From: Minisyncoccota bacterium
Lineage (GTDB): Bacteria; Patescibacteriota; Minisyncoccia; Phycocordibacterales; UBA9973
Assembly (NCBI GenBank): GCA_942491275.1
Contig: CALNZI010000007.1
Coordinates: forward strand, 63,353-127,352
Direction of reading: 5' to 3'
Length of the DNA stretch: 64,000 nucleotides
Positions 27,545 to 56,535 of this stretch are shown one piece after another. The notes under the pieces were generated by a model that was not told the DNA's origin, made no database searches, and saw nothing but the letters and a program-made list of their open reading frames with translations. A program made the position numbers and the translations under genes. The stretch's first letter is position 1. Each line of letters begins with the position of its first letter.

Positions 27545-27910
27545 ATGAAAAAAATACTAGCATTTCTTTTTAGTTTTATGATCCTTTTAGTTCCTGTGTT
27601 TTTTGTTACAGCTGCAGGGTTAGTACCAGATTGTCCTAATGGATGTAATTTTAATGATTTGATGATTATGATAAACAGGGTAATTAAATTTCTATTATTT
27701 ACCATTGCTACTCCGTTGGCTGCTATAATTTTTGCATATGCTGGATTTCTTTTGATTACTTCAGGGGGAGATCCCGGAAAGAAAACTCAGGCAAAAAAAA
27801 TAATAGGAAATTTATTGATTGGTTATATTATCGCTCTGGCCGCTTGGTTAATTGTGAATACCATTGTTACAGGGTTAGGTTTTACAGGTGATACATTTTT
27901 AGAGAAGTAA
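27545..27910 (+). CDS. TrbC/VirB2-like pilin family protein (paralog 1)
   Basis: Signal peptide, then two hydrophobic helices separated by a short basic loop (FLLFTIATPLAAIIFAYAGFLLITSGGDPGKKTQAKKIIGNLLIGYIIALAAWLIVNTI). This is the VirB2/TrbC topology. Confidence 0.55.
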   Translation: MKKILAFLFSFMILLVPVFFVTAAGLVPDCPNGCNFNDLMIMINRVIKFLLFTIATPLAAIIFAYAGFLLITSGGDPGKKTQAKKIIGNLLIGYIIALAAWLIVNTIVTGLGFTGDTFLEK

Positions 27911-27936
27911 ATTATTAATAGTTGAGTTAAAATAAT

Positions 27937-28410
27937 ATGAAAATTTTAAAAACAAAAAAATATAGCATTTTGAAAAATTTATTAAAATATAGTTTTGTAA
28001 TTGTATTTATTTTCTCTTTGGCAGTTGCTTCTGTTTTTGCAACAACAGACGGTGTAGGGAATACAGGAGGAGATGGAGTTGGGAATAATAATACTGGGAA
28101 TAATAGTGGTGAAATGAATTTAAATATAAACACTACAATTGATAATCCACTGAATGACAAACTTAACGATATTCCTTCTTTTATCCAAGCCATTCTAGAA
28201 ATTGTTTTAACTGTCGGTATTCCAATTGTAACTCTAGCAATTATTTATTCAGGTTTTCTTTTTGTTTCAGCTCAGGGTAGTCCAGAGAAATTAACTAAAG
28301 CCAAGAATACTTTAATGTACACCCTAATTGGGGCAGCTTTATTATTGGGAGCCTTTGTATTAGCAGAGGCAATACAATCAACGGTCGAAGAAATTAAAAC
28401 AACAACATAA
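27937..28410 (+). CDS. TrbC/VirB2-like pilin family protein (paralog 2) with Gly/Asn-rich linker
   Basis: Signal peptide, a GNTGGDGVGNNNTGNNSG low-complexity region, then the two-helix module IPIVTLAIIYSGFLFVSAQGSPEKLTKAKNTLMYTLIGAALLLGAFVLAEAI. Confidence 0.5.
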   Translation: MKILKTKKYSILKNLLKYSFVIVFIFSLAVASVFATTDGVGNTGGDGVGNNNTGNNSGEMNLNINTTIDNPLNDKLNDIPSFIQAILEIVLTVGIPIVTLAIIYSGFLFVSAQGSPEKLTKAKNTLMYTLIGAALLLGAFVLAEAIQSTVEEIKTTT

Positions 28411-28416
28411 TTAATT

Positions 28417-28734
28417 ATGAATGATCCAAAACAAATAACAGATGTTTGTAGTAATGTTAAATTTGATAGTATTGGAAATATTTTTAATTGGGCAAGCTGT
28501 ACTTTAGTAAAATCAATCATTCCTTTTCTGATTACTTTGGCAGTGGTCTCTTTTATTTGGGGAATAATTCAATATTTTTTAAATCCAGATAACGAAGAAA
28601 AACGCAAACAAGGTAAAACTTTTTTACTTTGGGGATTAATTGCGTTATTTGTCATGATTAGCGTTTGGGGATTAGTGAACATCTTCTCTGAGACTTTTCA
28701 TGTTAAAACACTTATTCCACAGCTTTCTCAGTAA
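28417..28734 (+). CDS. Pilin-like two-helix membrane protein (paralog 3)
   Basis: IIPFLITLAVVSFIWGIIQYFLNPDNEEKRKQGKTFLLWGLIALFVMISVWGLVNIF; the same two-helix-plus-basic-loop architecture. Confidence 0.45.
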   Translation: MNDPKQITDVCSNVKFDSIGNIFNWASCTLVKSIIPFLITLAVVSFIWGIIQYFLNPDNEEKRKQGKTFLLWGLIALFVMISVWGLVNIFSETFHVKTLIPQLSQ

Positions 28735-28892
28735 TTCCTTGCTTTTATTGTTGTATTTTTGTGATATAATACAAGTATCGTAAGTTGTTCTTTTTCTATA
28801 AAATATATAGAAATTATTATTAGGTCGTTGTTTTTTATTATTATTAAAATTACGTTTTTTAGATAAAATGTAATTAAATTAAGTTAAATTAT

Positions 28893-29255
28893 ATGAAAAA
28901 AATTATTTCATTGGGTGCTGTTTTAGGAACTTTTCCTTTGGCTGTGTTTGCAGAAGATGCTTTTGGTATTGTTTACACATTAAGTAATCTTCTTAACAAT
29001 TGGATAATTCCATTGTTGATTACTGTTGCAGTTGTTTATTTCATTTGGGGAGTTATTTCCTATATTACAGCTGGAGATGAAGAGAAAAAGAAAACAGGTA
29101 AGACTAAAATCATAAATGGTCTTATTGGATTATTTGTGATTGTTGCTTTCTGGGGAATAATAAGAGTTTTCTCATCAACATTTAATGTTGGACCAGAACA
29201 ATTAAACAATAACGCCATTCCTTGTATTCCTAGCCCAGGCTCCGATAATTGTTAA
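28893..29255 (+). CDS. Pilin-like two-helix membrane protein (paralog 4)
   Basis: Signal peptide plus IIPLLITVAVVYFIWGVISYITAGDEEKKKTGKTKIINGLIGLFVIVAFWGIIRVF. Confidence 0.45.
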   Translation: MKKIISLGAVLGTFPLAVFAEDAFGIVYTLSNLLNNWIIPLLITVAVVYFIWGVISYITAGDEEKKKTGKTKIINGLIGLFVIVAFWGIIRVFSSTFNVGPEQLNNNAIPCIPSPGSDNC

Positions 29256-31258
29256 TTGATATGAATTTTGGACTTATACCAGTTGCTGAAGCAAGTGTAG
29301 TTACTCTGATGAAGAGTATTAATAAGGTTATCATTAACCCTATTATATTGTTTTTATTTGCTTTAGCACTGGCATATTTCCTTTATGGTGTTGCTCAGTA
29401 TTTATTAAATTCTGATAGTGAAGAAATAAAAACTAAAAGTAAATCCCACATGCTCTATGGAGTTATTGGGCTTTTTATTATGGTGGCTGTTTTTGGAATT
29501 ATGAGATTAGTTTTAAATACTGTGGGAGAAAGTAAAACAGCTAAAATTGAAATTGAGGAGAGTGGGGATTATCAAATAACCAATAAAGATACAAATAAAA
29601 ATTATACTTTTATTGGTGATAACGTACTTGATTTAAATAATTATGATCCAACAGGGAGTGGAATTTTTTCTGCCAACGACTTAGACCTTCGTTCAGCTAG
29701 AAATATTGATTTAACGGATGTTAAAACAAACAGAACAACTAATTTTGACGAAAGTCCTTTTAATATAATATATATAGAAAATCCACTTTGTTGGCATGAG
29801 GAAGTCTATGCAACAGCTAATACAGAATATGATTCTATTAAATATGTAAAAAATATAGCAAAAGAACATTACTCTTCTGTTTTGGGAGAGGAAAAAACAC
29901 CCTCAAATTCAGGAATCTTAACTTCTTATGATGCTGAGAATGCAGTTTATCATAGCTGGATGGATGCTAGAGGTCCTAAAAAAGGAGGAACCGACGAGGA
30001 CTGTGTTTTAAAAGTTGATATAGAAAAAACTAAAAAAATATATGATGAGTTACCAATTGATAGTTATGTTAATGATGAGATATTTACTAAACCTCGAGAT
30101 ATGAGTTTGAATCCACCTCCCGAAGATTGGACAGGGAATTTCAGTTCTGATCCTTTGTTCCACAGAGTAATGGCTTCTGGATCTAATCCTCTTCTGGTGA
30201 TAGCTAGAAATCTCGCTATAAAAAATGCTTTTGCTCTTTTGGGAATAGAGATTCAGGAAATTAATGCCATGACCATTGTTTATCCAACAGCTAGTATTTT
30301 AGAAGAAAGTTATACCATTGATCCAAAAACTGGTAATTATGAATATTGGGTAGCCATTGAATCTAAAAAAACAACAACTGAAAGTAATATAACTCTTGAC
30401 CAGTATGCGGAAAAAGTAAAACCTTTTACTAAAACATATGAAAGTGATGATCTTTTCTTAAGAATTGTGGACTATGGAACAAGTACAGAATTAGCTACAG
30501 CTCGTGAAATTGCTTTAAGTAATGCTTTAATGCAAATCAGTTTTGCAGTTTGTGGTGATGGAAAAGATAATGATGGTGATGGTTCTACTGATAAAAATGA
30601 TGCCATGTGCCATCTAGATGGGGATGCTACAAATGATGATTCATATCTTCCCACCTATTATTCAGAAAATATAGTACCTCCGATTGATTTTTCAGGTGGG
30701 GAAATATCTTTAAGTTCTGGAATTTGTAATGATGGTATAGATAATGATGGAGATGAAAAGACTGACATAGAAGATCCTCAATGTCACACAGATGGAAATG
30801 CTGGAAATTCAGCTTCATATGTTCCTAGTTATGAATCAGAAAGTATTATCCCTCCTGTAGACCTGGCTGCTGAAATAGATTGGATAATTGTTCTTGAAGA
30901 AAAACAAATATTTAATGAAGAAACAGGGGAGTATGAATATTGGGTGGCTATAGAAAGTCCTCATACCATGGTGGATGGGGCTTCTCCAGTTTCTCAGAGT
31001 TTCAAAGCTATTCCATTTACTAAAATTTATAAAACTGATGGAACATATTATCGTGTTATTGATTCAGGAGTTGATATTAGCTTAGGTAAAGCTCGAGAAA
31101 TAGCTATCAATAATGCTTTCATCAAGCTAGAAGAAGAAGTGGAAGGGGAATTGGTGGGTGTTCAATATGTAACTATATTAGAAGAAAAACATATTTTTGA
31201 TTCCAAAACTGGCCTCTATGAATATTGGGTTGTCCTCCAGGCTACTAAGAAAAAATAA
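29249..31258 (+). CDS. Pilin-like N-terminal module fused to a 570-aa repeat-rich extracellular domain (paralog 5)
   Basis: N-terminal IINPIILFLFALALAYFLYGVAQYLLNSDSEEIKTKSKSHMLYGVIGLFIMVAVFGIMRL. The C-terminal part has three AREIA(L/I)xNA(F/L)...(I/V)LEE(S/K)xxFDxxTGxYEYWV modules and two CxDGxDNDGDxxTDxxDxxCHxDG(N/D)A Asp-rich (MopE-like) repeats. Confidence 0.5.
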   Translation: MLIDMNFGLIPVAEASVVTLMKSINKVIINPIILFLFALALAYFLYGVAQYLLNSDSEEIKTKSKSHMLYGVIGLFIMVAVFGIMRLVLNTVGESKTAKIEIEESGDYQITNKDTNKNYTFIGDNVLDLNNYDPTGSGIFSANDLDLRSARNIDLTDVKTNRTTNFDESPFNIIYIENPLCWHEEVYATANTEYDSIKYVKNIAKEHYSSVLGEEKTPSNSGILTSYDAENAVYHSWMDARGPKKGGTDEDCVLKVDIEKTKKIYDELPIDSYVNDEIFTKPRDMSLNPPPEDWTGNFSSDPLFHRVMASGSNPLLVIARNLAIKNAFALLGIEIQEINAMTIVYPTASILEESYTIDPKTGNYEYWVAIESKKTTTESNITLDQYAEKVKPFTKTYESDDLFLRIVDYGTSTELATAREIALSNALMQISFAVCGDGKDNDGDGSTDKNDAMCHLDGDATNDDSYLPTYYSENIVPPIDFSGGEISLSSGICNDGIDNDGDEKTDIEDPQCHTDGNAGNSASYVPSYESESIIPPVDLAAEIDWIIVLEEKQIFNEETGEYEYWVAIESPHTMVDGASPVSQSFKAIPFTKIYKTDGTYYRVIDSGVDISLGKAREIAINNAFIKLEEEVEGELVGVQYVTILEEKHIFDSKTGLYEYWVVLQATKKK

Positions 31259-33297: not shown

Positions 33298-33372
33298 GGC
33301 CCCATCGTCTAACGGTTAGGACATCGGGTTTTCAATCCGGTAATCAGAGTTCGATTCTCTGTGGGGTCACCA
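33298..33372 (+). tRNA. tRNA-Glu (anticodon UUC), CCA encoded
   Basis: Acceptor GGCCCCA/TGGGGTC, anticodon stem-loop TCGGG-TTTTCAA-TCCGG, T-arm CAGAGTTCGATTCTCTG, 3' ACCA. Confidence 0.85.
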
Positions 33373-34855
33373 ACGAAGAAGGATCAATCAAATATTGTTG
33401 ATATAGGCTGTAAATAGGGCTTAGTTTCTTAGTTCCAAATTTCTCTCCAGAAAATTCAATATTTTCTTCAAATATAATCTTTTGGAACTGCAATCTTTTT
33501 TCTGGTTGTTTTCCAAGGTCTACCCAGGTCTTAGATGTTTCTCTAACAAAATTAAAACAATATTCAAGGGCTTCTTCCATATTAAATCCTTCTTCTATCT
33601 TTTCTTGAATCAAAGACCTTTGTAAGGCTATTTTTTGATTAATTTTATTTTTTTGATAAGAAAAATCATCATTATCATAAACTTTAGATTCATGTAACTC
33701 AAAAATTCTTTCTTTTTGTTTTTCAAGGTTTGTAATTTCATTTCTAATTTTTTGATTATTACCATGAAAGCTCTTACAGTTATTTTTCCAAATATCCATA
33801 ACTATTTTTTTAAAAGCATTCTCATATTCAACACTAGGAGTTATTTCATTTAAAAATTCCACAAACAATTGTTCAAAGTTTTCTTTGGGTATAAATTTAC
33901 TATGAGGACAATCTTGTTTGTGATGGTGGTAATAAGAATACTTTTTACCAGTACAACTAGTGGAGGCACTTCCTGTTAACGGCTTAGTACAAAATTTACA
34001 GATAGCTAAACTACGAAGTGGAAATTTATCATTAATCTTTTTATGTGGAATATTTCTACGGGTTTTTCCTTTGGGCTGACATTGGTAAAATAGATGTTCA
34101 TCAATAATAGGTTCGAACTTGCCTTTAGCTTCTATACCCCAAGCTTTAATGATTCCAGCATACAAAGGATTCTTGATTATCTTTTCAATTAATTGAGGTA
34201 TAGCAGAATTCCCTCGCTTGGTAGTAAAACCTTGTTTATTTATGTATTCAGCTAACGATTTATAAGTATAAGTACCTTTTGCGTATTCCTCGAAGATAAG
34301 GCGTATAAATGGGGCAAATTTAGGGTCTAAAGATAGGTTGTCTCCTTTTTGTAATCTAGTATAACCAATAGGTGCTGGCCATACCCATACTCCTTGTTTA
34401 AGTCTTTCTCTCATTCCGTTAACACTCCTTTCAGTTCTCACGTTATTATCAAATTCAGCAAAACCAGAAAGCATAACTTCCATAAGTTTACCCGAAGGAC
34501 TATCATCAATCTTTTCTGATACAGAGCGAATTTCAGTTCCGTACTTTTTTAGTTTTTGTTTAACTATTGCATAGTCAGTTTGATTACGAGAGAATCTATC
34601 TATCTTATAAACAATAAAAGAAGAAATTTTATTTTTCTTTTCTGAACAAAAACTAATAGCTTTCATAAATTCTGTTCGGTTGGCTGTTTTTGCTGATTCT
34701 CCTTTCTCTATAAAAATTTTAAGAATATTTATATTTTCTTTTTCAGCATACTCCTTACAGATTCGTTCTTGAGAATCAAGACTAGTACCTTCTATCTGTT
34801 CGTGAGAAGAAACTCTTACATAAATTATTCCATTTTCTTTTTCAATTTTCTCCAT
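33344..34855 (-). CDS. Large serine recombinase
   Basis: MEKIEKENGIIYVRVSSHEQ (catalytic Ser), YKIDRFSRN, a recombinase domain and Cys-rich zinc-ribbon region. Its 3' end overlaps the 3' end of tRNA-Glu. Start moved to the internal Met (ORF track starts at 34942). Confidence 0.8.
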   Translation of the reverse strand: MEKIEKENGIIYVRVSSHEQIEGTSLDSQERICKEYAEKENINILKIFIEKGESAKTANRTEFMKAISFCSEKKNKISSFIVYKIDRFSRNQTDYAIVKQKLKKYGTEIRSVSEKIDDSPSGKLMEVMLSGFAEFDNNVRTERSVNGMRERLKQGVWVWPAPIGYTRLQKGDNLSLDPKFAPFIRLIFEEYAKGTYTYKSLAEYINKQGFTTKRGNSAIPQLIEKIIKNPLYAGIIKAWGIEAKGKFEPIIDEHLFYQCQPKGKTRRNIPHKKINDKFPLRSLAICKFCTKPLTGSASTSCTGKKYSYYHHHKQDCPHSKFIPKENFEQLFVEFLNEITPSVEYENAFKKIVMDIWKNNCKSFHGNNQKIRNEITNLEKQKERIFELHESKVYDNDDFSYQKNKINQKIALQRSLIQEKIEEGFNMEEALEYCFNFVRETSKTWVDLGKQPEKRLQFQKIIFEENIEFSGEKFGTKKLSPIYSLYQQYLIDPSSLVTPQRIEL

Positions 34856-34859
34856 ATAA

Positions 34860-35051
34860 TTACTTTCCCACATCCTCCTCATTAAGTCCATATACCCTAA
34901 TGGGATATTTGGAACTAGTTTTCTTTTCAATAAAGGATTCAAGGGCTAATTGTCCTAAAGAATACAAAGAACGCCTTATTTTAATAAGTTCTTTATCAGG
35001 TATATTTTTCAGACGATGGTCTGTTTTTCTTAATTCTTCAAGACTAATCAT
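34860..35051 (-). CDS. Small ORF between Rep and recombinase (possible regulator or directionality factor)
   Basis: 63 aa; overlaps the Rep stop and immediately precedes the recombinase start. Confidence 0.3.
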   Translation of the reverse strand: MISLEELRKTDHRLKNIPDKELIKIRRSLYSLGQLALESFIEKKTSSKYPIRVYGLNEEDVGK

Positions 35052-35817
35052 TTTTCTTTTTAAATATTCTTAATCGACCTCTACCAAGCCAACTGGTAAG
35101 ATACTCTCTATCTACTATTGGTTCATTTTGATTCATTCCGTGTTGATCTAATATAAATCCAATTCCTGCATAGGAAACATATTTCATTACATTTGGTCTT
35201 TCTATATTACGAGAAGCGACATAGCACTTTTGATTTTTTAATCTTGGATCTATAAATGCTTTTGCCATATATTTTGATAAATAAAATGACAATTTTTCAT
35301 CTCCATCAGTTTCCTTTATAAATACATAACCCCTTGACCAAAGTCCGGCAATCGTTCTAGTTTTCCGTTCCAATAAAAATACTTCCTCGGGTAACCCCCA
35401 GAAGAGAGCGTGATAATGAACTGCTCCACGTTTTTGAAATTCTGGAACGCAGATGTACCTGAAAATTTTTCCGTATTTGTAGCGGAGAGACTGGACAAAA
35501 GACGAGAGATCTTTATAGGCTCTTTTAAGGTCTGTGAGGTTTTCTCCGTAGGTAAGAGTAATAAGTAAAGGTCTTGTAAGTCCTCCGAGGTTAGAAGCAA
35601 CGATGCGTCTAAAAGCCAATTCCGCGCGTCTAGCATTATCTTGTCTTTTCCCCAACTTCCTTTCCGATAAATTATCTTCTCCATTAACTCCCAAATCCTT
35701 ATCATCAGATTTCCTTTCCCCGCCATTAATAATTGTTCGTTCGTATGTAATGATGTCTTTTTCATACTCATAAAGTTCTAATGTATTACCATAACTAATA
35801 ATCTTGTTGTAACCCAT
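35044..35817 (-). CDS. HUH-superfamily rolling-circle replication initiator (phiX174 gpA-like, two-tyrosine)
   Basis: HUH motif GAVHYHALFWG and a two-tyrosine motif SFYLSKYMAK (compare gpA YVAKYVNK). Confidence 0.7.
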   Translation of the reverse strand: MGYNKIISYGNTLELYEYEKDIITYERTIINGGERKSDDKDLGVNGEDNLSERKLGKRQDNARRAELAFRRIVASNLGGLTRPLLITLTYGENLTDLKRAYKDLSSFVQSLRYKYGKIFRYICVPEFQKRGAVHYHALFWGLPEEVFLLERKTRTIAGLWSRGYVFIKETDGDEKLSFYLSKYMAKAFIDPRLKNQKCYVASRNIERPNVMKYVSYAGIGFILDQHGMNQNEPIVDREYLTSWLGRGRLRIFKKKND

Positions 35818-36331
35818 ATAAATTAAGTTATCTTATTAAGTGAGTGAGTAAGCAAGTCACTCACTAGGGCTCAGATTCACCGAAGTCCAGCCACTTGCTT
35901 GGGAAATTCAGAATTCACTTCTAAAAAGATAAAGATCGACCACAAGAAAACCCCGCGACTCATAAAAAGTCCGCGGGGGTTTTCATCCTTGTAAATACTC
36001 AAAAACCTTTCTCTGTTGAAGATTTTGGTTATTTTCTCTATTAATTTTTGATTACATCTATATTCCTCCATACCTTTTTTAGGTACAAAAAAACCGCCTG
36101 AAATAGACAACGTAAAATTAGATTTCTTTAAATTGTTTTCTTTCTAGTCGGAGGAATTAAGTTGCAGAGCATTGCTTATGTACACATACTAGTTGCTATG
36201 GGTCTTTCCCATTCGCTTATTTGTATTCCAAGGTGCTCTTCTGTATTAATTTAAGTATCTACCTATTTATAAATTATGTCAAGTTTTAATTTAATGTTCA
36301 CAAAAAGGTAGTTATATTGTATAATTAATAA

Positions 36332-37336
36332 ATGCAATTATATATAGATTCTAATATATATTTAGAATATTTTAGAGAAAACTCTGCCGAAAGATTAACA
36401 CCCTTAAAAGAACTTCTGAAATTACTTAAAAAAGAAGAAGTTGTATTACTTTTACCTAGTCAAACCAGGCAAGAGTATTTTAGAAATAGAAGAAAAATAG
36501 CAGAGATAACAAGGTTATCTCTAATAAGACAAAGTAATATTTCTTCTTTCATTCCAGCTGTTCTTGATAAAGGAAATAAAGAAGTAAAGGATGTTTTAAG
36601 TAAAAAGAAAGATTTAATTACTTCATATAAAAAATTAATTAAAAAATATGATAAAGAAGTGGAAAAAGAAAAAACTGATGCGGATTTATTAATAAATGAA
36701 CTTTTTTTAAAATTTGCAAAAGTAATTAAAGAAACTGATGAAATCATAGCAAGTGCATATCGTAGATATATGAAAGGTAACCCTCCTAGAAAAAATGATC
36801 ATTCATATGGCGATGCATTAATATGGGAGACTCTTTTAAAAGAAGGGGCAAATGACGATTTGGTTTTAATTACAAAAGATGGTGATTTCATTGAAAAACA
36901 TAAAGGCAAACCTAAAATTAACCAATTTTTATTTGTAGAATGGAGAATCAAAACAAAGAAGAAAAAGAAGGTTATTTTATACAAATCACTTGCAGAATTT
37001 GTAAACACTTTTACAAAAAAAGAAATTTTAAAAAAGGAAATAATAGAAAAAGAGAATAGTTCTGTATTTAATGCAAGCATAACAAAAAGTTTATCTTACA
37101 ATACACAAGGAACACCAACGATTAGTGCTTCAAATTGTAGAATTTCAGATACAACGAGCCAAACAATAACAAAAATTACAAGAAATGGACTTATAGCAGA
37201 AGCAGACCTTGACTCTGATCCTCTTAGAATTAGCGCTTGCCAAAATTATGATTCGCTAGGAAAGATCTGTTCTTTTTGTGGAAATATTTATCATTATGAA
37301 CAAGAATATTGCTTTAATTGTGGTATAAAATTATAA
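36332..37336 (+). CDS. PIN-like domain protein (DUF4935-like) with C-terminal zinc ribbon
   Basis: N-terminal LYIDSNIYLEY...GDALIWETLLKEG...LVLITKDGDF resembles PIN-like acidic-residue spacing; C-terminal CSFCGNIYHYEQEYCFNCG. Confidence 0.4.
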   Translation: MQLYIDSNIYLEYFRENSAERLTPLKELLKLLKKEEVVLLLPSQTRQEYFRNRRKIAEITRLSLIRQSNISSFIPAVLDKGNKEVKDVLSKKKDLITSYKKLIKKYDKEVEKEKTDADLLINELFLKFAKVIKETDEIIASAYRRYMKGNPPRKNDHSYGDALIWETLLKEGANDDLVLITKDGDFIEKHKGKPKINQFLFVEWRIKTKKKKKVILYKSLAEFVNTFTKKEILKKEIIEKENSSVFNASITKSLSYNTQGTPTISASNCRISDTTSQTITKITRNGLIAEADLDSDPLRISACQNYDSLGKICSFCGNIYHYEQEYCFNCGIKL

Positions 37337-37498
37337 AATCTCTAATGTTTAAATATAGTGACAAACTAATAAAAGAAACGCAAAAAGTCTTTAAAGAAGA
37401 AGAGGGCTTAGATATTTCAAAGGAGACCGCGGTTGAATATATGGATCAATTATCGGGTTTGTTTTTAGCATTTTCAAAAAGACAAAAATAATTAGTAT

Positions 37499-39316
37499 TT
37501 ATTTACTATAATCTAAAACTATCTCATCTCCAGCAATATTACGGATTTTTATTTTAAATTTATTTGTTGGCAATTCGTATACCCCCTTGATTTTGTCTTT
37601 AATCTCTGCTTTATCCTCTAAATCCAAGTTACTAGTCCAAACACCACTTTTCTTTAATTCTGTATCAAACTGTAATGATTCAATAAGCTCTAAACCATTC
37701 TCACTGATTTTAACAGCTTTTGTTTTATCTTTAGTTAAAGTCCCTTTTTTAACTTTCTTGGCATTATATTCATCTATTTTGGCTTTAAGATAAGGACTAA
37801 AGAACTTTTTAATTTTAACATTGCATCCTTTGCCATCTTTTTTAAGTTCAATACCAACTGAATCCTCTGGGAAAAACATATCTCTTTTGTCAGCCAATAA
37901 ATCATCTAAATTAATCAACTCAACTAAAATACTTGTCTTGCCAGAATTTTTTATTTCTTTATTTAAATAACACTGGTCTATATCTAAATCCTTAAAAGCA
38001 TAGATAATATTAACTTTACTCGCTCCTTTTTCTGTTTCTTCTAGAGCGTAAATTTCTTCCAAGACAACATCTAGTAATTCTTTTGTTAGTTTCTTATCAA
38101 TACCAATAAATTTAACTGGCTCAAAACTACCTTTTTCTTTAATAATTCCACCATCCCAAAATTCCCCCAGTTCAAGTTCGACTCTTGGTCTAAAGCCCTC
38201 AATCAAAGAGAACATCTTTTGAGTTGTTTGAGCTGGGTTTCTAAATAATCTTATACCATCTTTTATTTTTAAAATATCAAAATCCACTTTTCTTTTTACT
38301 AACCCATCTCTAGTTTCTTGAATAGCATTTATTCCAACATCACAAACAATAAATTTTCTATTCAAATCACTAGCAACTTTTGCAGTTGTCCCACTTCCAA
38401 CAAAAAAATCTGCAACAATCATTCCTTCACTGGTGGCTGTATCAATAATTCTTCTTAATAACTCTATTGGTTTTTGTGTATTATATTGAGTTTTTTCTTT
38501 TGATTGAACATTTTCAAGTGGTATATCCCAAACATCATCAATAGGTATTTCTTCTTTGAAATATTTTTTACCTCCTCGAACTAATTTGTATTTTTTTCCA
38601 TTTTCATCTTTTAAATTATATTTGGATTCAGTAAATTCGCTTACCTTTTTTAAAATTGGACTAAAATAATATTCTTTTGATTTTCCATAATGATAAATAT
38701 TATCGTGCTTACGAGCATATCGGTCTTCGGGGGCTCTACTGCTTGTGTAATGCCAAATAATTTCATTTATAAAATTCTCTTCTCCAAAAACCTCGTCCAT
38801 CATAACCTTCGCATATTGTCCTATATGCCAATCCAAATGGATATAGATGCTAGCTTTTTCACTCATAATCTCTCTAATAGCCAATAAACGCTCATAAAGC
38901 CAGTTTAAATAGTCCTCTTTCTGCCAAATGTCACCATACATAATCTCTTCACCAATACCATTATCTTCATTTTCAAATTGAGTTTTATTACCATTTCTTA
39001 AAAAGATTTTTTTTGCATAATTAGCTCCACTAGCAAATGGCGGGTCAATATATACCAAATCAACTTTTATATTTTTTGATTTTAAATAAGCACAGGCAGA
39101 TAAAGTATCTCCATATAAAAACAAATTTTTAAAATCAGCATTAATTTCTTTTTGCTTATTCACTAATTTCTTTTTTTCTTTTTGTTTTATCTCTTCAATA
39201 ACTTCTGTTTCAAAAAGTTGCATTTCAATATTTTTACTTGGAAGTAATCGCCCTTGATAGTTTAATAGGGCTTGTCCTTTGGCTGGTGTGATATTGTATG
39301 ATTTTGGTTTTTGCAT
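37499..39316 (-). CDS. mod: Type III restriction-modification Mod subunit-like DNA methyltransferase (beta-class N6A/N4C)
   Basis: DPPF motif IV (DLVYIDPPFASGANY) lies before motif I (IVADFFVGSGTTAKVA), i.e. beta-class order. The protein is 605 aa. Confidence 0.75.
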   Translation of the reverse strand: MQKPKSYNITPAKGQALLNYQGRLLPSKNIEMQLFETEVIEEIKQKEKKKLVNKQKEINADFKNLFLYGDTLSACAYLKSKNIKVDLVYIDPPFASGANYAKKIFLRNGNKTQFENEDNGIGEEIMYGDIWQKEDYLNWLYERLLAIREIMSEKASIYIHLDWHIGQYAKVMMDEVFGEENFINEIIWHYTSSRAPEDRYARKHDNIYHYGKSKEYYFSPILKKVSEFTESKYNLKDENGKKYKLVRGGKKYFKEEIPIDDVWDIPLENVQSKEKTQYNTQKPIELLRRIIDTATSEGMIVADFFVGSGTTAKVASDLNRKFIVCDVGINAIQETRDGLVKRKVDFDILKIKDGIRLFRNPAQTTQKMFSLIEGFRPRVELELGEFWDGGIIKEKGSFEPVKFIGIDKKLTKELLDVVLEEIYALEETEKGASKVNIIYAFKDLDIDQCYLNKEIKNSGKTSILVELINLDDLLADKRDMFFPEDSVGIELKKDGKGCNVKIKKFFSPYLKAKIDEYNAKKVKKGTLTKDKTKAVKISENGLELIESLQFDTELKKSGVWTSNLDLEDKAEIKDKIKGVYELPTNKFKIKIRNIAGDEIVLDYSK

Positions 39317-39320
39317 AAAA

Positions 39321-42092
39321 TTATAATTTTTTTACCTCATTTTTTAATTTACTAATAAAGTTTGTAAAATCGTTATCTTCATTTTCGTCCACAAAGCAAA
39401 CATAATTGAAATTGGGATTATGTTTTTTAAAATCATTCAACATAAACCGCTCTTTTTGTTTAAAATCATCATCGTAGTAAATCTTGCCTTTTGTTTCAAT
39501 TATCAAGACCTTTTCAATCATTCTACCTTTTCTTTTGAGAATCAGGAAATCAGGAGTATAAACACCTCGGGGAGTTTGAACCCAAAAACTCTGCAATTCA
39601 TTGTTTTTAAAACCATTAAAATAAACTTCTAGAGCAGCGAGCTCATTCATTTTTAACATTTCAGACAAAGCATTTATTTCAAAATTACTATCTACTTTAT
39701 AAGGCACATAATTAAAACTGATATTTTGGGAATCTAAATTTTCAGCATCCGCTTCTAAATCTTCAGGATGTTTTCTAAAAAGTTCTATGTTGCGATTATC
39801 AATTTTAGGCATAAATTTTGCCAACGCTCCACTTGAAGAATAAAGAGCCATTGTAGGATTTTTTGTTTGCCATTCAAGTAATTCAATCTCGACATCTTTT
39901 GTTATTATTTCTTTTTTATATTCAACTTCTTCCATTAAAAATGAAGCGAGGTATTTTATAATATTATCAACTTCCAAGTTGGGATTAGATTCAATCCAAT
40001 TAAGTTCCTTCTGTATTTCAGTAAAGATTTTCTTTAATTTAGTATGATAATTTTCTAACAAGTGAATCTCACTAAATTTTCCAAGGGTTGCTTTTGCTAA
40101 ATCATAAATAAAGTCGTTAAAAAAATAATCAGTAATTTCAAATTTTGAAATTTTTTCTTCCACTTCACGGCTTATACCAGTTTTACCAATTCTGCCTTTT
40201 ATTATTCTTTCATCATATTTATATTTTTCTTTTACATCCTTAAAGTTAAATTTATTTAAATTGCTGACCGCTGTCTTTTTTAAAAGAATTTTGTATTTAG
40301 TTTCAACTTGCTTGTATCTCAATTTGCCAAGTTTGGGTTTCCTTATCTTAACAGAAATTTCTGGCTGTGAACCAAATTTCAAATCTGAAATACTCAAGTC
40401 ATAATTTTCTCTTAATTCAGAGTCTAGTGTTTTGTAGTTTTCTTTTTCCAAATAAATCAAAGCTTTCTCTTTTTTTGCATCAATAACTTCTCGCAAGCAC
40501 CGGCAAGTTGTTTGTAGAACAAAATTTTTGGTGGTTTTTTGTCGGGGTAATACAACAGCAGTTAAACTCTTACAATCCCAACCTTCTGTGCCAATCGCTA
40601 CGAGCAAAATAACTCTCTTGTCAGAGTAAGGTTTATCTAAATTATTAAATACAGCCAAACTTTCTTTTGGTATCTCATACTGCTTGTTTTCTTTCCCATT
40701 TGTATAAAATTTAAATATTTCAGACTCCTTGTTTTTCCTTTTTGACCTATACCAATCTTGAATCACTGGTAATATCTTTTCATTTAATACCTTAATAGAT
40801 GGACAATAAAAAACAATTTTGCTTTTTGTATCGTTGCTGTATGTAATATCAAAATTATTAAAGAAATCAGTCAGAGCTTGTTTAATAAACAAATCCTCTT
40901 TTACTTCAACTTTTTTAATCTCTGGGATTTTTAAAAACCTACCTATTCCTTGATTTAAGTAATAGTTATAAACTATATCTTGAATTTGATTTAATTTTAT
41001 CTCATCATCTCCAATTTTTACCTTATGCTTAACATAAGGAGTGCCAGAAAGTCCAAGGACAGAAATAATATTTTTATGCTGATCTAAAATATTAACTGCC
41101 TTTCTTAATGCTTTTTCTTTTTTCTCGGCATTTACTCCATAACTATGGTGAACTTCATCTAGTATTACGCCTAGATGAGAAATCTGAGATAATTTTTCTC
41201 TTAATTCATTCAACTTTAAAATCTCACTAATTTTTTTCTCATCATAATACAAACTGTCTTTCTCAACAAAAATTTTGTCTTTATCCTCATATTTTTCAAG
41301 CACAACTTTTTCGGCATTAGTAATAAAAACCATACCAAATTTTTTGGTTTGAAAGATACGATTTACCTTTTCTAAATTTGGATTATTACCTTGTAGTTTG
41401 TCTTTCCTTTGAGAACTTAAAGCGTCTAAAATTTCAATCTGAATTATTTGCTTTAATTTATGAGCTTCTTTGTCTGGAAATATCCATTCGGGATTAAAAT
41501 TCTTTATAGTTTGTAAAGATGGAAGAATTGCTGTTTTAGATGCAGACGGAGCTAAAACAATAAAATTATGCGCAAACCTTTTATCGTTTTTGTATATGCT
41601 AGCAAAATATAAATCTAAGTATATAAAACAAGCCATTAAGAATGTCTTACCTGCCCCCATTGGTAAACTGAATAAATAGTTTGGGTAGTTGTAATTATGT
41701 AAAAGTTCATCTAAAACTTTATCCCAGTTTGTTTTTTCGCTTTTTGGATCGTTTGCTAATTTTTTTTGAAGATTATGAACGCTATTTTCTTGAAAAAATT
41801 GATTCAAAAAATGGGTTGTATAATTACTGCCAAAATTGTGAAAGTTATCATAGCCCTTTGCTATTTCTTCATCATATAAAAACCCAGCTCGAATAATATC
41901 TGATAGTTTTTTATTATTACCAACAAATTTTAACCAAAGATAAACTTCAATAGCTTGTTTTTGTGGTTCTCTTAATTTATTTTCTACTTCAATATATTTA
42001 ATTAAGTTACCTACAATTGACTGATTCTTAGATTTTTCTTGGGTTACCCAGCTAGATGCCTTATTTTCTATTAAATTAAAAATTGTGTTCAT
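39321..42092 (-). CDS. res: Type III restriction enzyme Res subunit (SF2 helicase plus C-terminal PD-(D/E)xK nuclease)
   Basis: Walker A LPMGAGKT, DEVH (ILDEVHHS), SGTP, QTTCRCLR, and C-terminal YTPDFLILKRKGRMIEKVLIIETKG. Confidence 0.75.
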   Translation of the reverse strand: MNTIFNLIENKASSWVTQEKSKNQSIVGNLIKYIEVENKLREPQKQAIEVYLWLKFVGNNKKLSDIIRAGFLYDEEIAKGYDNFHNFGSNYTTHFLNQFFQENSVHNLQKKLANDPKSEKTNWDKVLDELLHNYNYPNYLFSLPMGAGKTFLMACFIYLDLYFASIYKNDKRFAHNFIVLAPSASKTAILPSLQTIKNFNPEWIFPDKEAHKLKQIIQIEILDALSSQRKDKLQGNNPNLEKVNRIFQTKKFGMVFITNAEKVVLEKYEDKDKIFVEKDSLYYDEKKISEILKLNELREKLSQISHLGVILDEVHHSYGVNAEKKEKALRKAVNILDQHKNIISVLGLSGTPYVKHKVKIGDDEIKLNQIQDIVYNYYLNQGIGRFLKIPEIKKVEVKEDLFIKQALTDFFNNFDITYSNDTKSKIVFYCPSIKVLNEKILPVIQDWYRSKRKNKESEIFKFYTNGKENKQYEIPKESLAVFNNLDKPYSDKRVILLVAIGTEGWDCKSLTAVVLPRQKTTKNFVLQTTCRCLREVIDAKKEKALIYLEKENYKTLDSELRENYDLSISDLKFGSQPEISVKIRKPKLGKLRYKQVETKYKILLKKTAVSNLNKFNFKDVKEKYKYDERIIKGRIGKTGISREVEEKISKFEITDYFFNDFIYDLAKATLGKFSEIHLLENYHTKLKKIFTEIQKELNWIESNPNLEVDNIIKYLASFLMEEVEYKKEIITKDVEIELLEWQTKNPTMALYSSSGALAKFMPKIDNRNIELFRKHPEDLEADAENLDSQNISFNYVPYKVDSNFEINALSEMLKMNELAALEVYFNGFKNNELQSFWVQTPRGVYTPDFLILKRKGRMIEKVLIIETKGKIYYDDDFKQKERFMLNDFKKHNPNFNYVCFVDENEDNDFTNFISKLKNEVKKL

Positions 42093-42180
42093 ATCTATAA
42101 AATTATTGAGGTATTAAGTAATACCTCAAACCATTTTTCATAACAATGATATTATAAAACAAAACCACTAAATTTCCTAA

Positions 42181-42232
42181 ATTCCCCTATATTCTCTACA
42201 ATCGAGTTCCAACTGCGTCCCGTTTGGGTCAC
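42181..42232. repeat. Left copy of a ~50-bp imperfect direct repeat
   Basis: tcccctatattctctacaatcgagttccaa...cccgtttgggtcac; 28/30 identical to 43326-43355 over the core, with a similar tail. Confidence 0.6.
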
Positions 42233-42305
42233 TGCACATTTATAACCTTATTTGTTAAGGTTTATTCTAGTTACAATTTTATATTTTTCATGGTAATATA
42301 TAATC

Positions 42306-42379
42306 GATGTGGTAGCCAAGTGGTAAGGCATTTACTCGCAAGGTAAATATCGTAGGTTCAATTCCTACCCACATCTCCA
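42306..42379 (+). tRNA. tRNA-Cys (anticodon GCA), CCA encoded
   Basis: Acceptor GATGTGG/CCACATC, anticodon stem-loop TTTAC-TCGCAAG-GTAAA, T-arm GTAGGTTCAATTCCTAC. Confidence 0.85.
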
Positions 42380-43326
42380 TGACAGCACAAGAATATATTG
42401 AAAAAAGGTTAAATGGAATTAAAGATATAAAAGTTAAGCAAGAAGGAGATCTTGCTGATTTTATATATGACACAATAATGTCAAAAAAATTTAGAAAATA
42501 TAGTGTAAACCCTGAAGCCTTCCCAAAAATTAAAGAAGCAATAGGGCTAAATATAAAGAATAATGAGCCTATAAAAATTGTTATTCCGTTTGGTTCATAT
42601 AAACTATGGAAATTTGAGGAAAGCCCAGAACCAGATTGGGCTGAACTTTTTGCAATGATTTATTATGCCTATTGGTTAAAACCAATTACAGATGTATATA
42701 AGCCTGGAGTATGGTTTGATTTTTGTGCAGACGATGCGATTCTAGAACTAATGAATAACATTCCTGAAGAAGATACTAATAAATATAAGAAAACTTTTAG
42801 AGAGTTAATTGAATTTATAAAACCCTACTTACCTGATAATTTTAAATATACTTTCAGTCCAGTTGGAGAAAGATACTCTTCAAAAGAAGAATTTATGGCT
42901 GACCTTAATAATCAGATTGCTGAATTAAAAAAGAATGGAATTACACCAATAATAGAAAAAGATATTAGAAGAATGAAAACTAATATTAAGGTAGATAATA
43001 AAGAAGAAATAAATTTAGAAGAAAATCATCTCCTTCATGATGCATATATGAATGTTAGTAAAAGAAGGTCGTACCACAAAACACCTGACAGAATTTCAAT
43101 ATCTGCTACTCCGTTTGGTAAAAGGACCGCTATCCCAGTAGGAACAACAAAAACATCCGCTGTTCAATTTCAAGTTGGTACTGGTGTTTTAGGAAAACAT
43201 AAAGATGGTTTAATAGAATACATCTATTCTGTTTCTCAATTAGAATCAAGTAAGTTTATAAAAGAGGATGTTTCAATCGATGGTTTAAATGCAAAAAACT
43301 TTAAAACAATACGCGTAATTGATTAA
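42379..43326 (+). CDS. Hypothetical 315-aa protein; its ATG overlaps the terminal A of tRNA-Cys CCA
   Basis: ORF with Trp/Tyr-rich core (WAELFAMIYYAYW...GVWFDFCADD) and no recognisable motif. Confidence 0.4.
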   Translation: MTAQEYIEKRLNGIKDIKVKQEGDLADFIYDTIMSKKFRKYSVNPEAFPKIKEAIGLNIKNNEPIKIVIPFGSYKLWKFEESPEPDWAELFAMIYYAYWLKPITDVYKPGVWFDFCADDAILELMNNIPEEDTNKYKKTFRELIEFIKPYLPDNFKYTFSPVGERYSSKEEFMADLNNQIAELKKNGITPIIEKDIRRMKTNIKVDNKEEINLEENHLLHDAYMNVSKRRSYHKTPDRISISATPFGKRTAIPVGTTKTSAVQFQVGTGVLGKHKDGLIEYIYSVSQLESSKFIKEDVSIDGLNAKNFKTIRVID

Positions 43327-43374
43327 AATCCCTTATATTCTCTACAATAGAGTTCCAATAAATTACCCGTAGGG
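43323..43374. repeat. Right copy of the ~50-bp imperfect direct repeat
   Basis: tcccttatattctctacaatagagttccaa...cccgtagggtcac. Confidence 0.6.
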
Positions 43375-43424
43375 TCACAAATGAAAAAACTTCTCGAAAG
43401 AGTGGGTTTTTTCATTTGTGACCC
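43372..43424. repeat. Perfect 19-bp inverted repeat (hairpin) with 15-nt loop
   Basis: gggtcacaaatgaaaaaac (43372-43390) / gttttttcatttgtgaccc (43406-43424). Confidence 0.7.
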
Positions 43425-43619
43425 CAAGTAAGCAAACTGCTTTGCTTACGTCAGAGAATCGAAAGGCGGAGCTATAATTTTTTGAGTACAAAAAATAAGC
43501 GAGCCAGGGTCGTGAAATTTTTGTTGAGGCGGCAACAAAAATATTCCTGACCGAAAACGTACTCGTGGTTCTCTTTTGACGAAAAATAAATTATTGTGGC
43601 TCACAAAAAAACAAACCCA

Positions 43620-46111: not shown

Positions 46112-46745
46112 ATGGAAAATACACAAGTAATTATTTTAGCAGCAGGAAAGGGGACAAGAATGGAGTCTGAAGACCCCAAGGTTCTTTCTTTGCTTAAGAA
46201 GAAACCATTTCTAAAACACATATTAGATACTCTTTCTCATTTAAAACTAACCCTTGAGCCGGTAATTGTTGTTGGATATATGAAAGAAAGAATATCTGAA
46301 GTAATTGGGAAAAATTTTAATTATGCTCATCAAAAAGAACAATTAGGAACTGGTCACGCAGTTCTTTCGGCTAAAGACTCAATGCACTCAGACCATAAAA
46401 CAGTTATGGTTATTTCAGGAGACCAACCACTGGTTTCTAAGGGCACTTTAGAAAAATTAATAAAGGTTCATAAAAAGAATAATTCAATGGTTAGTATTGC
46501 TACTGTTAAATTACCTGATTTTAATGAATGGAGGGAGGGAGCTCTCACTTGGGAAGAGTTATAAGAGATGAAAATGGTAAAGTCTTAAAAATTGTTGAAA
46601 ATAAAGACGCCACCGAAGAAGAGAAAAAAATTACAGAAATAAATTATGCTTTGTATGTTTTTGATGGAGATTGGCTTTGGGGAAATATAGATAAATTAAA
46701 AAATGAAAATGCTTTAGAGCAACCAGTGTCAAGTTTGTCGGCGAT
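46112..46745 (+). pseudogene. GlmU-like sugar-1-phosphate nucleotidyltransferase N-terminal domain, frameshifted and truncated at the composition junction
   Basis: [17 protein letters not shown]...GTGHAV...ISGDQPLV, then a frame change near 46530-46550 (a gggaggga run), continuing [24 protein letters not shown]. The AT-rich sequence ends around 46745. Confidence 0.55.
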
Positions 46746-47475
46746 AAACAGATTGTGGTCATTCCCAATACCCCCTTCCTCTGGGGTCCGGAAGCCAGCG
46801 TCAGTAGTGGTATCCGGGCGCGACTTCACCTAAGTTGAAGGTTCAACGTTTCTGGTTCCTGGTCAGCCTTGCCGGCATTCGGGCTATTCGTTACTAAATC
46901 AACCTTGGTTACACCAGATTATTGCGAGCCGTCCGCCGCCAGGCGACATTCCGTCTTAAATGAGTATATTGACACATCCGCCTTCATCGATTCCCCGGGA
47001 ATTCGGCCGGTACCGAGCGCCCGCATCCAGACTGGCCACACCGGGCGCGGTACGATTGGCGACGGCCTTTGCTGTGGTGCGCAAATTTGCCGCGGTCGTT
47101 TAGCAAACCATGACCGACTCACCGTTGGCGATTTCCGATACCGGGCATCAGCGGAATTAATCAGATCGCATCGTCGCTTTTTTGTTTCAGATGGGGGATA
47201 TTTATCAAACATCGATAAGACCCTGGTCCTGGCTGTGCGGACTGATGACCGTGGATCGGATAGTGCTTAACCGCGGCATCCCGAGGCTGCTTTCCAGGGC
47301 TCGATATGCGTCAGGAGGGGTGGAATCCGGTCGTTTTTTCATCGCCGCTATTTAACAGCTGTAGATCTCGATCTTGCCCGATGGCGTCGGGAAGGGGTTG
47401 TTTACCGGATCATCGATCTGTTCGCGAAAGGCAGCGGGGTGTTTCAATTCAATTTTGGTGAGCAGCATCAGCTGT

Positions 47476-48600: not shown

Positions 48601-48631
48601 CCGCAAACATATTAAAAAAACGCCTGCTATT

Positions 48632-50221
<1,590 letters not shown>

Positions 50222-50223
50222 CC

Positions 50224-50439: not shown

Positions 50440-50584
50440 TTCATTCCTGCATGCGTCAGGAATGTCGTGCATGAATACCACAGCCGCTTTTCGCAATCGA
50501 CCGGTTTCCGCTACACTCGCATGCCACCGTGCATTCGAATCCGTCGTTCCGCTTCCATCTTCATATTTATCAAAAAGGATGTCG

Positions 50585-50980: not shown

Positions 50981-50990
50981 CAGAAAGCTG

Positions 50991-52400: not shown

Positions 52401-52402
52401 GT

Positions 52403-53116
<714 letters not shown>

Positions 53117-54238: not shown

Positions 54239-54298
54239 ATCGGGCTTTTGAATGGCGTTAATGGTAAACTCGCGAAAGTTTACCACCTTACTATTGTC

Positions 54299-56522: not shown

Positions 56523-56535
56523 ATCAGGCAGAGGA

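Follow-up and report, generated by a model that had tools for sequence, protein, structure and literature searches.

A probable integrative element with a rolling-circle replicon at tRNA-Glu of a Patescibacteria contig and its apparently split large serine recombinase gene

pSAM2, an actinomycete integrative and conjugative element (AICE) of Streptomyces, integrates into a tRNA gene, excises and is then replicated as a rolling circle by its own Rep. In the SSV1-type integrases of archaeal viruses (fuselloviruses) the attachment site of the element (attP) lies inside the integrase gene, so that integration splits the gene and excision makes it whole again. Serine integrases, HUH Reps, tRNA-integrated rolling-circle elements and split tyrosine integrase genes are each known separately. 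The closest characterised system to the one described here is that of phiRSM1 and phiRSM3 (Inoviridae, Habenivirus) of Ralstonia, where integration into the 3' end of tRNA-Ser is carried out by a small serine recombinase with a shared core of 13 nt (PMC3816273). A survey from 2020 states that serine integrases (S-Ints) are not known to target tRNA genes (PMC7192596), and the phage-inducible chromosomal island-like element (PLE) of Vibrio cholerae is reported to use a large serine recombinase (LSR) (PMC9638900). We analysed a stretch of 64,000 nt (referred to as the window) of contig CALNZI010000007.1 from a Minisyncoccota bacterium. An earlier reading made from the letters alone (the sequence-only reading) had proposed an integrative plasmid- or satellite-like replicon next to tRNA-Glu at 33,298-42,232. 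Our analysis indicates that this block is very probably a site-specific integrative element of 8,862 bp with a rolling-circle replicon, extending from attL (33363-33370) to attR (42225-42232).

All features listed by the sequence-only reading were found at their positions in 33,298-42,232: tRNA-Glu, the LSR, a 63-aa open reading frame (ORF), an HUH Rep, a PIN-like protein and a res-mod pair. For comparison we surveyed 76 genome loci and conducted contig look-ups; 60 of the listed loci have Rep followed by LSR (loci are cited by L numbers and proteins by P numbers). The integration target is tRNA-Glu(UUC) on the plus strand (33298-33372; ARAGORN; Rfam tRNA, 59.6 bits). The LSR gene is present in its integrated form with an exchanged C-terminus on the minus strand (33344-34891), and the reading frame stops 29 nt within the tRNA, as expected from the overlap that had been noticed before. 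The mechanical ORF reaches 34942, the database protein P0121 (515 aa, 99% identical to the window LSR, on a 131-kb contig) begins at the codon at 34891 and the family consensus favours the ATG at 34855 as the start. The protein matched the Pfam families Resolvase (PF00239, 1e-31), Recombinase (PF07508, 1e-13) and Zn_ribbon_recom (PF13408, 2e-4) as well as PHROG 95 (integrase, 1.8e-85). The zinc ribbon scored 21.8 bits, slightly under the cut-off of 25.3, and its cysteines are invariant among 41 homologues, as are both serines of the YVRVSS motif. An AlphaFold model of the full-length homologue P0199 matched the structures of the full-length Bxb1, phiC31 and LI serine integrases (E 6e-18), and long helices are predicted at 345-392 and 398-421, which would form a coiled coil. 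The window enzyme is a large serine recombinase with recombinase domain, zinc ribbon and coiled coil. Between LSR and Rep lies the 63-aa ORF (34860-35051, minus strand), which overlaps the Rep stop by 8 nt. It had no match in Pfam, PHROG or PADLOC. With tblastn we found homologues of 41-67% identity at the same position in loci of the clade, and the counterparts in the episomal forms L108 and L115 have 59-66 aa. Judging by its position the protein may be a directionality factor or a regulator.

The third gene on the minus strand encodes a 257-aa HUH Rep with two catalytic tyrosines (35044-35817). It matched PF23343 REP_ORF2-G2P with 71.5 bits (7.3e-20, cut-off 27.8) and PHROG 3419 'rolling circle DNA replication initiation' with 2.7e-31; a match to the Pfam RepSA model was faint and sub-threshold. 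The motifs LITLTY (motif I), H134-Y-H136 (HUH) and Y179-LSK-Y183-MAK are present, and an alignment of 30 Rep homologues shows no variation at H134, H136, Y179, Y183 and K186, which confirms the two-tyrosine Rep recognised earlier from HYH and YLSKYMAK. The sequence-only reading had called it a phiX gpA-type initiator. The two-tyrosine HUH part of this holds, whereas the closest family is the G2P-ORF2 family of inoviruses and plectroviruses and not phiX gpA itself. The proposed search against Microviridae and plasmid Rep families gave a match above the profile cut-off, with Microviridae VP4, inovirus and plectrovirus Reps as relatives; among deposited phages these are Ralstonia phiRSM1/3 ORF12, inoviruses from rodent faeces, Microviridae VP4 and the Spiroplasma plectrovirus SVGII3. 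In the database we counted 582 Rep homologues, and those with a named source are of Patescibacteria (Campbellbacteria, Pacebacteria, Nomurabacteria, Taylorbacteria and Zambryskibacteria). A search of the Rep profile against PDB sequences gave no match. A scan of viral contigs with the single Rep sequence recovered no relatives, and the alignment-based scan of the same contigs recovered distant LSR-less relatives and two distant Rep+LSR contigs only.

Upstream of Rep there is a non-coding gap of 514 nt. A hairpin GTGAGTGA-CTTGCTTAC-TCACTCAC lies in this gap ∼40 nt upstream of the Rep ATG (35840-35864, minus strand; as one sequence GTGAGTGACTTGCTTACTCACTCAC), and its loop holds GACTTGCTT (35850-35858, minus strand). 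The region shows 91-100% identity over 31-36 nt to loci whose Rep is only 60-81% identical, and GACTTG[C/A]T upstream of Rep is kept family-wide, including the circular genomes that carry a Zot-like ATPase. The hairpin is present in the minimum free energy and the centroid folds. Conservation and folding suggest that the GACTTG hairpin is a putative plus-strand origin with a predicted nick inside the motif. Its core presumably resembles the phiX174 gpA cleavage site ACTTG/ATA (slash: nick), which we treated as a lead and not as a test. Further upstream the folding of 35818-36010 (z = -4.4 compared to shuffles) revealed a G+C-rich hairpin (35946-35984), which may represent an accessory origin or a minus-strand-origin element. 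Most family members have analogous G+C-rich hairpins ahead of their origin motif.

The tRNA-Glu 3' half is not repeated anywhere in the window. As a long repeat is missing, as expected for a serine integrase, we searched for attR upstream of Rep with the final 8 nt of the tRNA that is targeted in each locus. Five attR sites were found: R1 and R2 in the window and one site each in L001, L038 and L068. The core reads GTGACCC for the Glu loci and GTGCCCC for Arg, and a P arm with the motif TTGGAAC...ATTGT follows 17-19 nt on. The combination of P-arm motif and core at R1 is common to L001, L038 and L068. The R1 core is TGGGTCAC on the plus strand (42225-42232), and the comparison of attL, attR and attP places the attL core GGGGTCAC in the 3' acceptor strand of tRNA-Glu (33363-33370). 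The distance between both cores is 8,862 bp. The sequence-only reading had let the element end at about 42.18-42.3 kb, and the R1 core ends exactly at its last position, 42232. On the left side the core is followed by the P' arm (33371-33412), which lies within the last ∼15 LSR codons (SLYQQYLIDPSSL). We compared the P' arm junctions of the window, L001, L033, L034, L035 and L038: the clade members have kept the motif TATATCAACAATA in their DNA sequence, and the arrangement is identical in the attP forms L107, L108 and L115. Two other candidates were rejected. Direct repeats of the tRNA-Glu 3' half that could serve as att sites are absent from the window, the junctions sharing only ∼7 nt, and the anticodon-loop match GGGTTTTCATCC (35977-35988) scored within the shuffle null and has neither exon nor arm that would mark a crossover.

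The right end also holds a piece of the recombinase gene. If the LSR frame is read from attL across each of the five attR sites it stays open for 23-40 more codons and encodes a conserved W[NK]x[IL][VL]xx[IL] peptide in all five cases. At R1 (42152-42232, minus strand, core plus P arm) this displaced exon reads VTQTGRSWNSIVENIGEFRKFSGFVL followed by a stop. We then looked at the C-termini of the 120 best LSR homologues. The W[NK] peptide ends 19 of them, all on contigs of at most 18 kb, and 92 end in tRNA-antisense codons such as LVTLPGIEP or LVTLQRIEL (GIEP and RIEL endings), on contigs of up to 682 kb. In the window the last 8 residues of the integrated LSR (VTPQRIEL) come from antisense tRNA-Glu. 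The model of P0199 predicts that the exchanged tail forms two helices (predicted local distance difference test 84-90). The homologue P0172 ends ...EIGRASCRERVCYPV; this looks like read-through into unrelated or artefactual sequence and not like a genuine C-terminus.

The relation between attL, attR and attP can be followed in relatives. Locus L108 contains a contiguous P'-core-P arrangement, Rep, a 66-aa ORF and a full-length LSR, then a PemK toxin gene, and no tRNA. L112 carries an LSR at tRNA-Glu(ctc) that is 88% identical to that of L108, and the sequence that is contiguous in L108 is divided in L112 between position 11533 (attL) and position 5462 (attR), i.e. the attP of L108 equals attL plus attR of L112. 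This division places attP, as judged from the sequences, within the 3' end of the LSR gene in the LSR clade of the window, and the attP form was seen in L107, L108 and L115. By the same comparison, integration swaps the last ∼25 LSR codons (the WNxIV helices) for a few antisense-tRNA codons. The att sites share a core of 7-10 bp, GGTGACCC(TA), with predicted recombination at GGGTCAC in the tRNA acceptor arm. For the window copy the predicted attP junction is GATCCTTCTTCGTTGGTGACCCAAACGGGACGCAGTTGGAAC (longer form 5'-GATCCTTCTTCGTTGGTGACCCAAACGGGACGCAGTTGGAACTCGATTGTAGAG; R2 variant ...GGTGACCCTACGGGTAATTTATTGGAAC) and the predicted empty site (attB) is 5'-TTCGATTCTCTGTGGGGTCACTGCACATTTATAACC.

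A circular form of the Rep+LSR module exists among the relatives. Contig L114 has a terminal overlap of 30 nt, and L115 from another sample is a circular permutation of L114. The circle has 5,052 bp, no tRNA, the origin motif and an intact attP (GATCCTTCTAATTTGGTGACCCACATTAGTGCGAATTGGAAC). Its genes are a Rep (64% identical to that of the window), a full-length LSR (62%), a 59-aa ORF and three more ORFs.

The module is widespread across Patescibacteria. Of the 60 listed Rep-then-LSR loci, 43 have the LSR stop at, or close to, a tRNA gene of the opposite strand, and the LSR ORF extends 13-205 nt into this gene in nearly all of these 43 loci. Most of the others are cut off by a contig break. We identified 11 tRNA targets: Glu(ttc), Glu(ctc), Lys, Arg(tct), Gln(ttg), Gln(ctg), Tyr, Ile, Leu(gag), Leu(tag) and Ser(cga). 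The conserved backbone consists of origin, Rep, small ORF and LSR, and in the recurring layout the antisense tRNA comes after the LSR. These targets together with the circular 5.05-kb form are what became of the proposed integrative plasmid- or satellite-like replicon, which thus gained support. The closest relative found (L001/L031) has the gyrA-to-pilin and iPGM-tRNA-Ser synteny in common with the window and carries a module of ∼75% identity at the same tRNA-Glu with entirely different cargo. The DNA homology covers 33298-35866 only and resumes at iPGM. Given this gap the block is, on sequence grounds, accessory and not core genome, and a syntenically conserved core block, named earlier as grounds for giving up the mobile-element idea, was not what we found. 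Single metagenome-assembled genomes (MAGs) of Patescibacteria (e.g. CAIPHR01 bin-1666 and CAIMKX01 bin-0381) hold four separate Rep loci, so that several members of the family live side by side in a single small genome. L057 (3728-7600) shows two recombinase elements arranged back to back. One is of the Rep+LSR type and has its end in tRNA-Ser(cga) (5969-6056); a divergent tRNA-Glu(ttc) (6127-6199) adjoins it and another LSR gene follows on the opposite strand.

A second LSR clade (L008, L040, L058, L072 and L099) shares the Rep family, and its LSRs are 25-31% identical to the window LSR. It targets tRNA-Gln, Leu, Ile and Tyr, and its LSR ORF reads up to 61 nt into tRNA-Gln. These loci show direct repeats of the tRNA 3' end of 13-19 nt located 2-6.4 kb upstream of Rep, so that finding boundaries by repeats works in the Gln/Leu clade and fails in the clade of the window. 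We searched the Gln/Leu/Ile LSR clade for a displaced conserved exon and found none. The split LSR gene is thus specific to the clade of the window.

Between attR and the origin lies the cargo, which differs from element to element. In the window the first cargo gene encodes a PIN_12 (formerly DUF4935) protein on the plus strand (36332-37336; PF16289, 66.8 bits, 4e-18). Its description as a PIN-like protein with a C-terminal zinc ribbon was right for PIN_12; the C-terminal CxxC...CxxC is there, and the zinc-ribbon profile match stayed below the threshold. The gene had no PADLOC or NCBIfam match and no homologue in the other fetched loci. The second gene (37499-39316, minus strand) encodes a Mod-like N6/N4 DNA methyltransferase (PF01555 N6_N4_Mtase, 1.9e-44) for which the PADLOC models MTase_III (5e-48) and MTase_II (∼1e-48) were equally good. 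The third gene (39321-42092, minus strand) encodes a Res-like helicase-nuclease with a superfamily 2 ResIII domain (29.9 bits) and a C-terminal RE_endonuc domain (25.9 bits), both barely over the Pfam cut-offs; the NCBIfam match to a restriction endonuclease family was weak and far below the cut-off. On the minus strand res (42092-39321) comes before mod (39316-37499), the opposite of the classical Type III order. Of the type III restriction-modification (R-M) system that had been named, Mod is therefore well supported, whereas Res is near threshold with no PADLOC endonuclease and the classical mod-res order is absent. Res is the weakest assignment in the window. Other loci carry an EcoRI-type methylase with a GmrSD/HNH nuclease (L007), an OLD-family nuclease (L107), the PemK toxin of L108 or methyltransferases (L112, L054, L063, L069, L070 and L076). 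From this variety we conclude that defence and addiction genes are typical passengers of the family. With regard to the small major coat protein and the adsorption protein of inoviruses, the region from attL to R1 has no small ORFs besides the 63-aa ORF and a doubtful one of 77 aa, although no search aimed at coat proteins was made.

The right end is doubled. A 25-nt pattern occurs exactly twice in the window (42188-42212 and 43334-43358; 0 expected by chance). The imperfect direct repeats which had been reported at ∼42.18 kb are real; they had been placed beyond the element, and they turned out to be attR sites. The second site R2 (43301-43378, minus strand, with core, P arm and the exon VTLRVIYWNSIVENIRDFNQLRVLF followed by a stop) lies 1.15 kb outside R1 and was absent from the earlier account. 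The segment between R1 and R2 (42306-43326, plus strand) holds tRNA-Cys(GCA) (42306-42379; ARAGORN, Rfam) and a 315-aa ORF (42379-43326) with a weak DIT1_PvcA match below the cut-off. It has no homologue in the other fetched loci and may either have been left behind by an earlier occupant or have been captured. R2 probably marks an outer, older junction, and R1 is the more plausible active end because the use of R2 would strip tRNA-Cys from the chromosome. R2 is abutted by a hairpin (43,369-43,463; local alignments) whose distal arm is the inverted tRNA-Glu 3' end from T-loop to acceptor (TTCGATTCTCTG...TGGGGTCAC). A matching hairpin lies next to the outer attR of L068 (4350-4422). The window hairpin carries an inserted 25-nt mini-hairpin, and CTCCGYCTT beyond it is conserved in the window and L068; aligning the R2 region to the L068 outer site with MAFFT was uninformative by itself. 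In three independent elements we observed paired attR-type sites in direct orientation that each have a copy of the LSR exon: the window (42,183-42,240 and 43,329-43,385), L112 (5463/5933) and L068 (4416/7750). The inner copy of L112 and L068 has a mutated core. The doubling suggests serial occupation of one tRNA or the capture of small segments.

These observations lead us to propose the following cycle for the integrative element. In the circular form the LSR gene would be complete, with attP within its last ∼40 codons. The LSR would recombine attP with the 3' acceptor strand of tRNA-Glu at the 7-10-bp core, which would keep the tRNA intact with CCA now encoded and split the LSR gene. The integrated copy would then end in antisense-tRNA codons, and the true C-terminal exon (two predicted helices, WNxIVxxI) would be left ∼8.9 kb away at attR. 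Recombination of attL with R1 would restore the circle and the full-length LSR gene. Rep would nick the hairpin at GACTTG/CTT upstream of its own gene and start rolling-circle replication of the circle. PIN_12 and res-mod would be cargo of a defence or addiction type, and spread between cells might occur by transformation or by hitch-hiking with helper phages. Every ORF of the element as well as both cores and the R1 exon are undamaged in the window, and this copy may still be active.

Several observations weigh against such a cycle in the window copy. We found no excision junction for it, and no empty tRNA-Glu site was recovered for the window lineage, the scan of genome contigs having been aimed at Rep. 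With two attR-like sites the functional right end is not proven; a circle formed from R2 would include tRNA-Cys as well. Genes for transfer or packaging are missing from the element, and no directionality factor was identified in it. Its base composition is indistinguishable from that of the flanks, and Res, with its near-threshold Pfam scores, was unrecognised by PADLOC. As far as the data searched are concerned, exact-protein look-ups had neither the window Rep nor P0121 on record, the window proteins are not in the contig index, and a scan of the JGI metagenomes with the attP pattern returned two G+C-rich chance matches with no LSR.

The missing junction would also be expected if the block were a fixed relic, i.e. 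a chromosomal R-M/PIN island whose LSR is truncated and which does not excise any more. The doubled attR suggests old and layered events, and the LSR of L033 is frameshifted, so that decay does occur in the family. However, the truncated LSR is the normal outcome of integration in this clade, as seen in the 92 of 120 homologues mentioned above. Rep, small ORF, LSR body, origin, cores and R1 exon of the window are intact and in frame, and near-identical relatives are found elsewhere: a Rep of 98% identity on another contig (P0001) and the LSR of 99% identity on the 131-kb contig (P0121). We consider a fixed relic to be improbable.

An inovirus-like origin has to be considered as well. Four circular contigs, three from IMG/VR (L011, L012 and L014) and one from a Patescibacteria MAG (L074), have 4.8-6.2 kb after removal of the terminal overlap. 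They encode a Rep that is 46-50% identical to that of the window (43-50% by tblastn), a Zot-like ATPase, a protein of 490-578 aa and ORFs of 84-95 aa, and they have no LSR. They are small inovirus-like phages, and their hosts are probably Patescibacteria. The element could thus be a defective prophage, in which a phage with Rep, Zot and coat genes was integrated by the LSR, lost its morphogenesis genes and acquired R-M and PIN later. Its Rep and origin motif are common with these ∼5-kb circles, its Rep is ∼30% identical to ORF12 of phiRSM1, and phiRSM likewise integrates at a tRNA 3' end via a serine recombinase (PMC3816273). However, a Zot homologue was found in no examined Rep+LSR locus and an LSR in no Zot-carrying relative. 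No ORF of the element matched Zot in Pfam or PHROG, three Zot-like proteins from the related circles, used as tblastn queries, matched neither the window nor any Rep+LSR locus, Zot is missing from the gene tables of L001, L007, L008, L108, L112 and L115, and the complete 5,052-bp circle had no Zot Pfam match. A complete circle and integrated loci that all lack Zot indicate a stable lineage design and not the decay of one copy. Without a Zot homologue in its loci the Rep+LSR lineage is an offshoot of a plasmid-like and possibly satellite-like kind rather than the decay product of a prophage, an explanation to which we give little credence.

Another explanation restricts the mobile unit to the 2.5-kb backbone (33.35-35.87 kb) and regards PIN-Mod-Res as an unrelated defence island in a hotspot. 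The DNA homology with relatives ends at 35866-35871, ∼50 nt ahead of Rep, neither PIN nor Res has a homologue in the other loci and the region from tRNA-Glu to iPGM is variable among relatives, all of which would fit. The displaced LSR exon and the P arm are, however, located beyond Res (42152-42232) and not at 35.87 kb. In L001, L038, L068 and L112 the attR site is found 2.1-5.6 kb upstream of Rep with variable cargo inside, the episomal forms hold cargo between attP and Rep with recurring methyltransferase or R-M genes, and neither a ∼2.5-kb attP circle nor an attR-type site in 35.87-36.33 kb was found. A backbone-only unit is thus highly improbable. That the block is an IS91/Helitron-type rolling-circle transposon, with the HUH protein as transposase and the serine recombinase as accessory resolvase, can be dismissed almost entirely: a two-tyrosine HUH enzyme with hairpins nearby and a weak Helitron_like_N match (19 bits, below the cut-off of 28.9) speak for it, whereas the junctions coincide with the end of the LSR gene and together restore an att site of the LSR type that has a short core in common, the HUH origin motif sits inside the element at 2.5 kb from attL and not at its edge, and the tRNA 3' ends used as targets are specific and change with the LSR clade.

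For the integrative element itself we can take the interpretation one step further, with two joint suggestions that we regard as tentative and rather unlikely to hold together: that the swap of the LSR tail is a topology-coded control of directionality, and that the Zot-less circles are single-stranded DNA satellites mobilised by inovirus-like phages. Only the circular form would make the full-length LSR with the WN helices, the enzyme for integration, and the integrated copy would make a tRNA-tailed LSR without helices that is locked or biased toward excision. Directionality would then be encoded partly by DNA topology and not only by a separate directionality factor. The helpers of the Rep+LSR circles would be Patescibacteria inovirus-like phages with a common Rep and origin family.

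Other regions of the window showed noticeable characteristics as well. A first element (1,385-8,281) has an LSR on the plus strand (6542-8221) whose 3' end overlaps tRNA-Asn on the minus strand (8209-8281), with no Rep; upstream of this LSR lie a Shedu SduA_C-like gene (1385-2749) and a Schlafen AlbA_2 gene (3460-4101). A LOOT RNA (Rfam RF03000, 76.7 bits) and an S-adenosylmethionine (SAM) riboswitch were detected at 4,574-4,700 and 5,037-5,137, both on the minus strand, in a stretch of 2.4 kb without an ORF of at least 100 aa. About 100 nt between cargo and Rep in L008/L009 (L008 9278-9378) are 75% identical to 4552-4649 of the window, which overlaps the LOOT RNA. A cluster of T4SS_pilin-like small proteins (27,545-31,258) matches L001 10067-11859, and a 669-aa ORF (29249-31258) has a pilin-like N-terminus (first ∼90 aa). 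Near 46.75 kb the G+C content jumps from ∼30% to ∼60% (46,700-64,000), and the genes beyond this point (SurA, P-type ATPase, APH, SBP_bac_5) resemble those of proteobacteria. Two unrelated organisms seem to have contributed DNA to the window, which would then be a chimeric contig or a string of concatenated MAG contigs.

In the literature we found no description of the Rep+LSR family of Patescibacteria and no report of an LSR with attP inside its own coding sequence. The mobile elements of Patescibacteria are barely charted, and the backbone described here is abundant with hundreds of Rep and LSR homologues. The family exists both as ∼5-kb circles and as tRNA-integrated islands which ferry R-M, toxin and nuclease genes. 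It extends the LSR repertoire by systematic targeting of tRNA 3' ends and by a clade whose integration appears to rewrite the C-terminus of its own enzyme. The arrangement of attP within the LSR gene makes the control of directionality directly testable. Moreover, a small native replicon with origin, Rep and a predictable tRNA attB is a candidate basis for vectors in a phylum that is hard to manipulate genetically.

Compared to the known systems the element shows likenesses and differences in each case. With phiRSM it shares a homologous Rep (ORF12, 29.5% identity over 74% of the window Rep), a circular rolling-circle replicon, a self-encoded serine recombinase, a tRNA 3' end as target and a short shared core. 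However, the phiRSM recombinase ORF14 is of the small resolvase/invertase type with 196 aa whereas the window LSR has ∼500 aa, attP lies between genes in phiRSM and inside the recombinase gene in the clade of the window, and phiRSM has a full virion and assembly module whereas the window element has no Zot and no recognised coat genes, carries R-M cargo and has a Patescibacteria host. pSAM2 is likewise a tRNA-integrated element with its own rolling-circle Rep, but its integrase is a tyrosine enzyme accompanied by Xis, its Rep belongs to a different family and it has an FtsK-like gene for transfer; tyrosine integrase, Xis and FtsK-like domains were found by Pfam in no ORF of the element. With SSV1 the element shares an attP within the integrase ORF and a gene that is split on integration. 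This resemblance is functional only: the tyrosine recombinase of SSV1 loses a large part of its gene, whereas the serine recombinase of the window would swap its last ∼25 codons. Bxb1, phiC31 and Listeria A118/LI have the same domain architecture and fold, short att sites and a small core; tRNA 3' ends as the rule distinguish the family of the window from them. Like RS1, the satellite of CTXphi, and like PLE, the element combines a replication initiator with an integration function and has no recognised virion genes. By analogy with RS1 and PLE the window element may be a satellite, for which the Zot-carrying circles with the same Rep and origin family could act as helpers.

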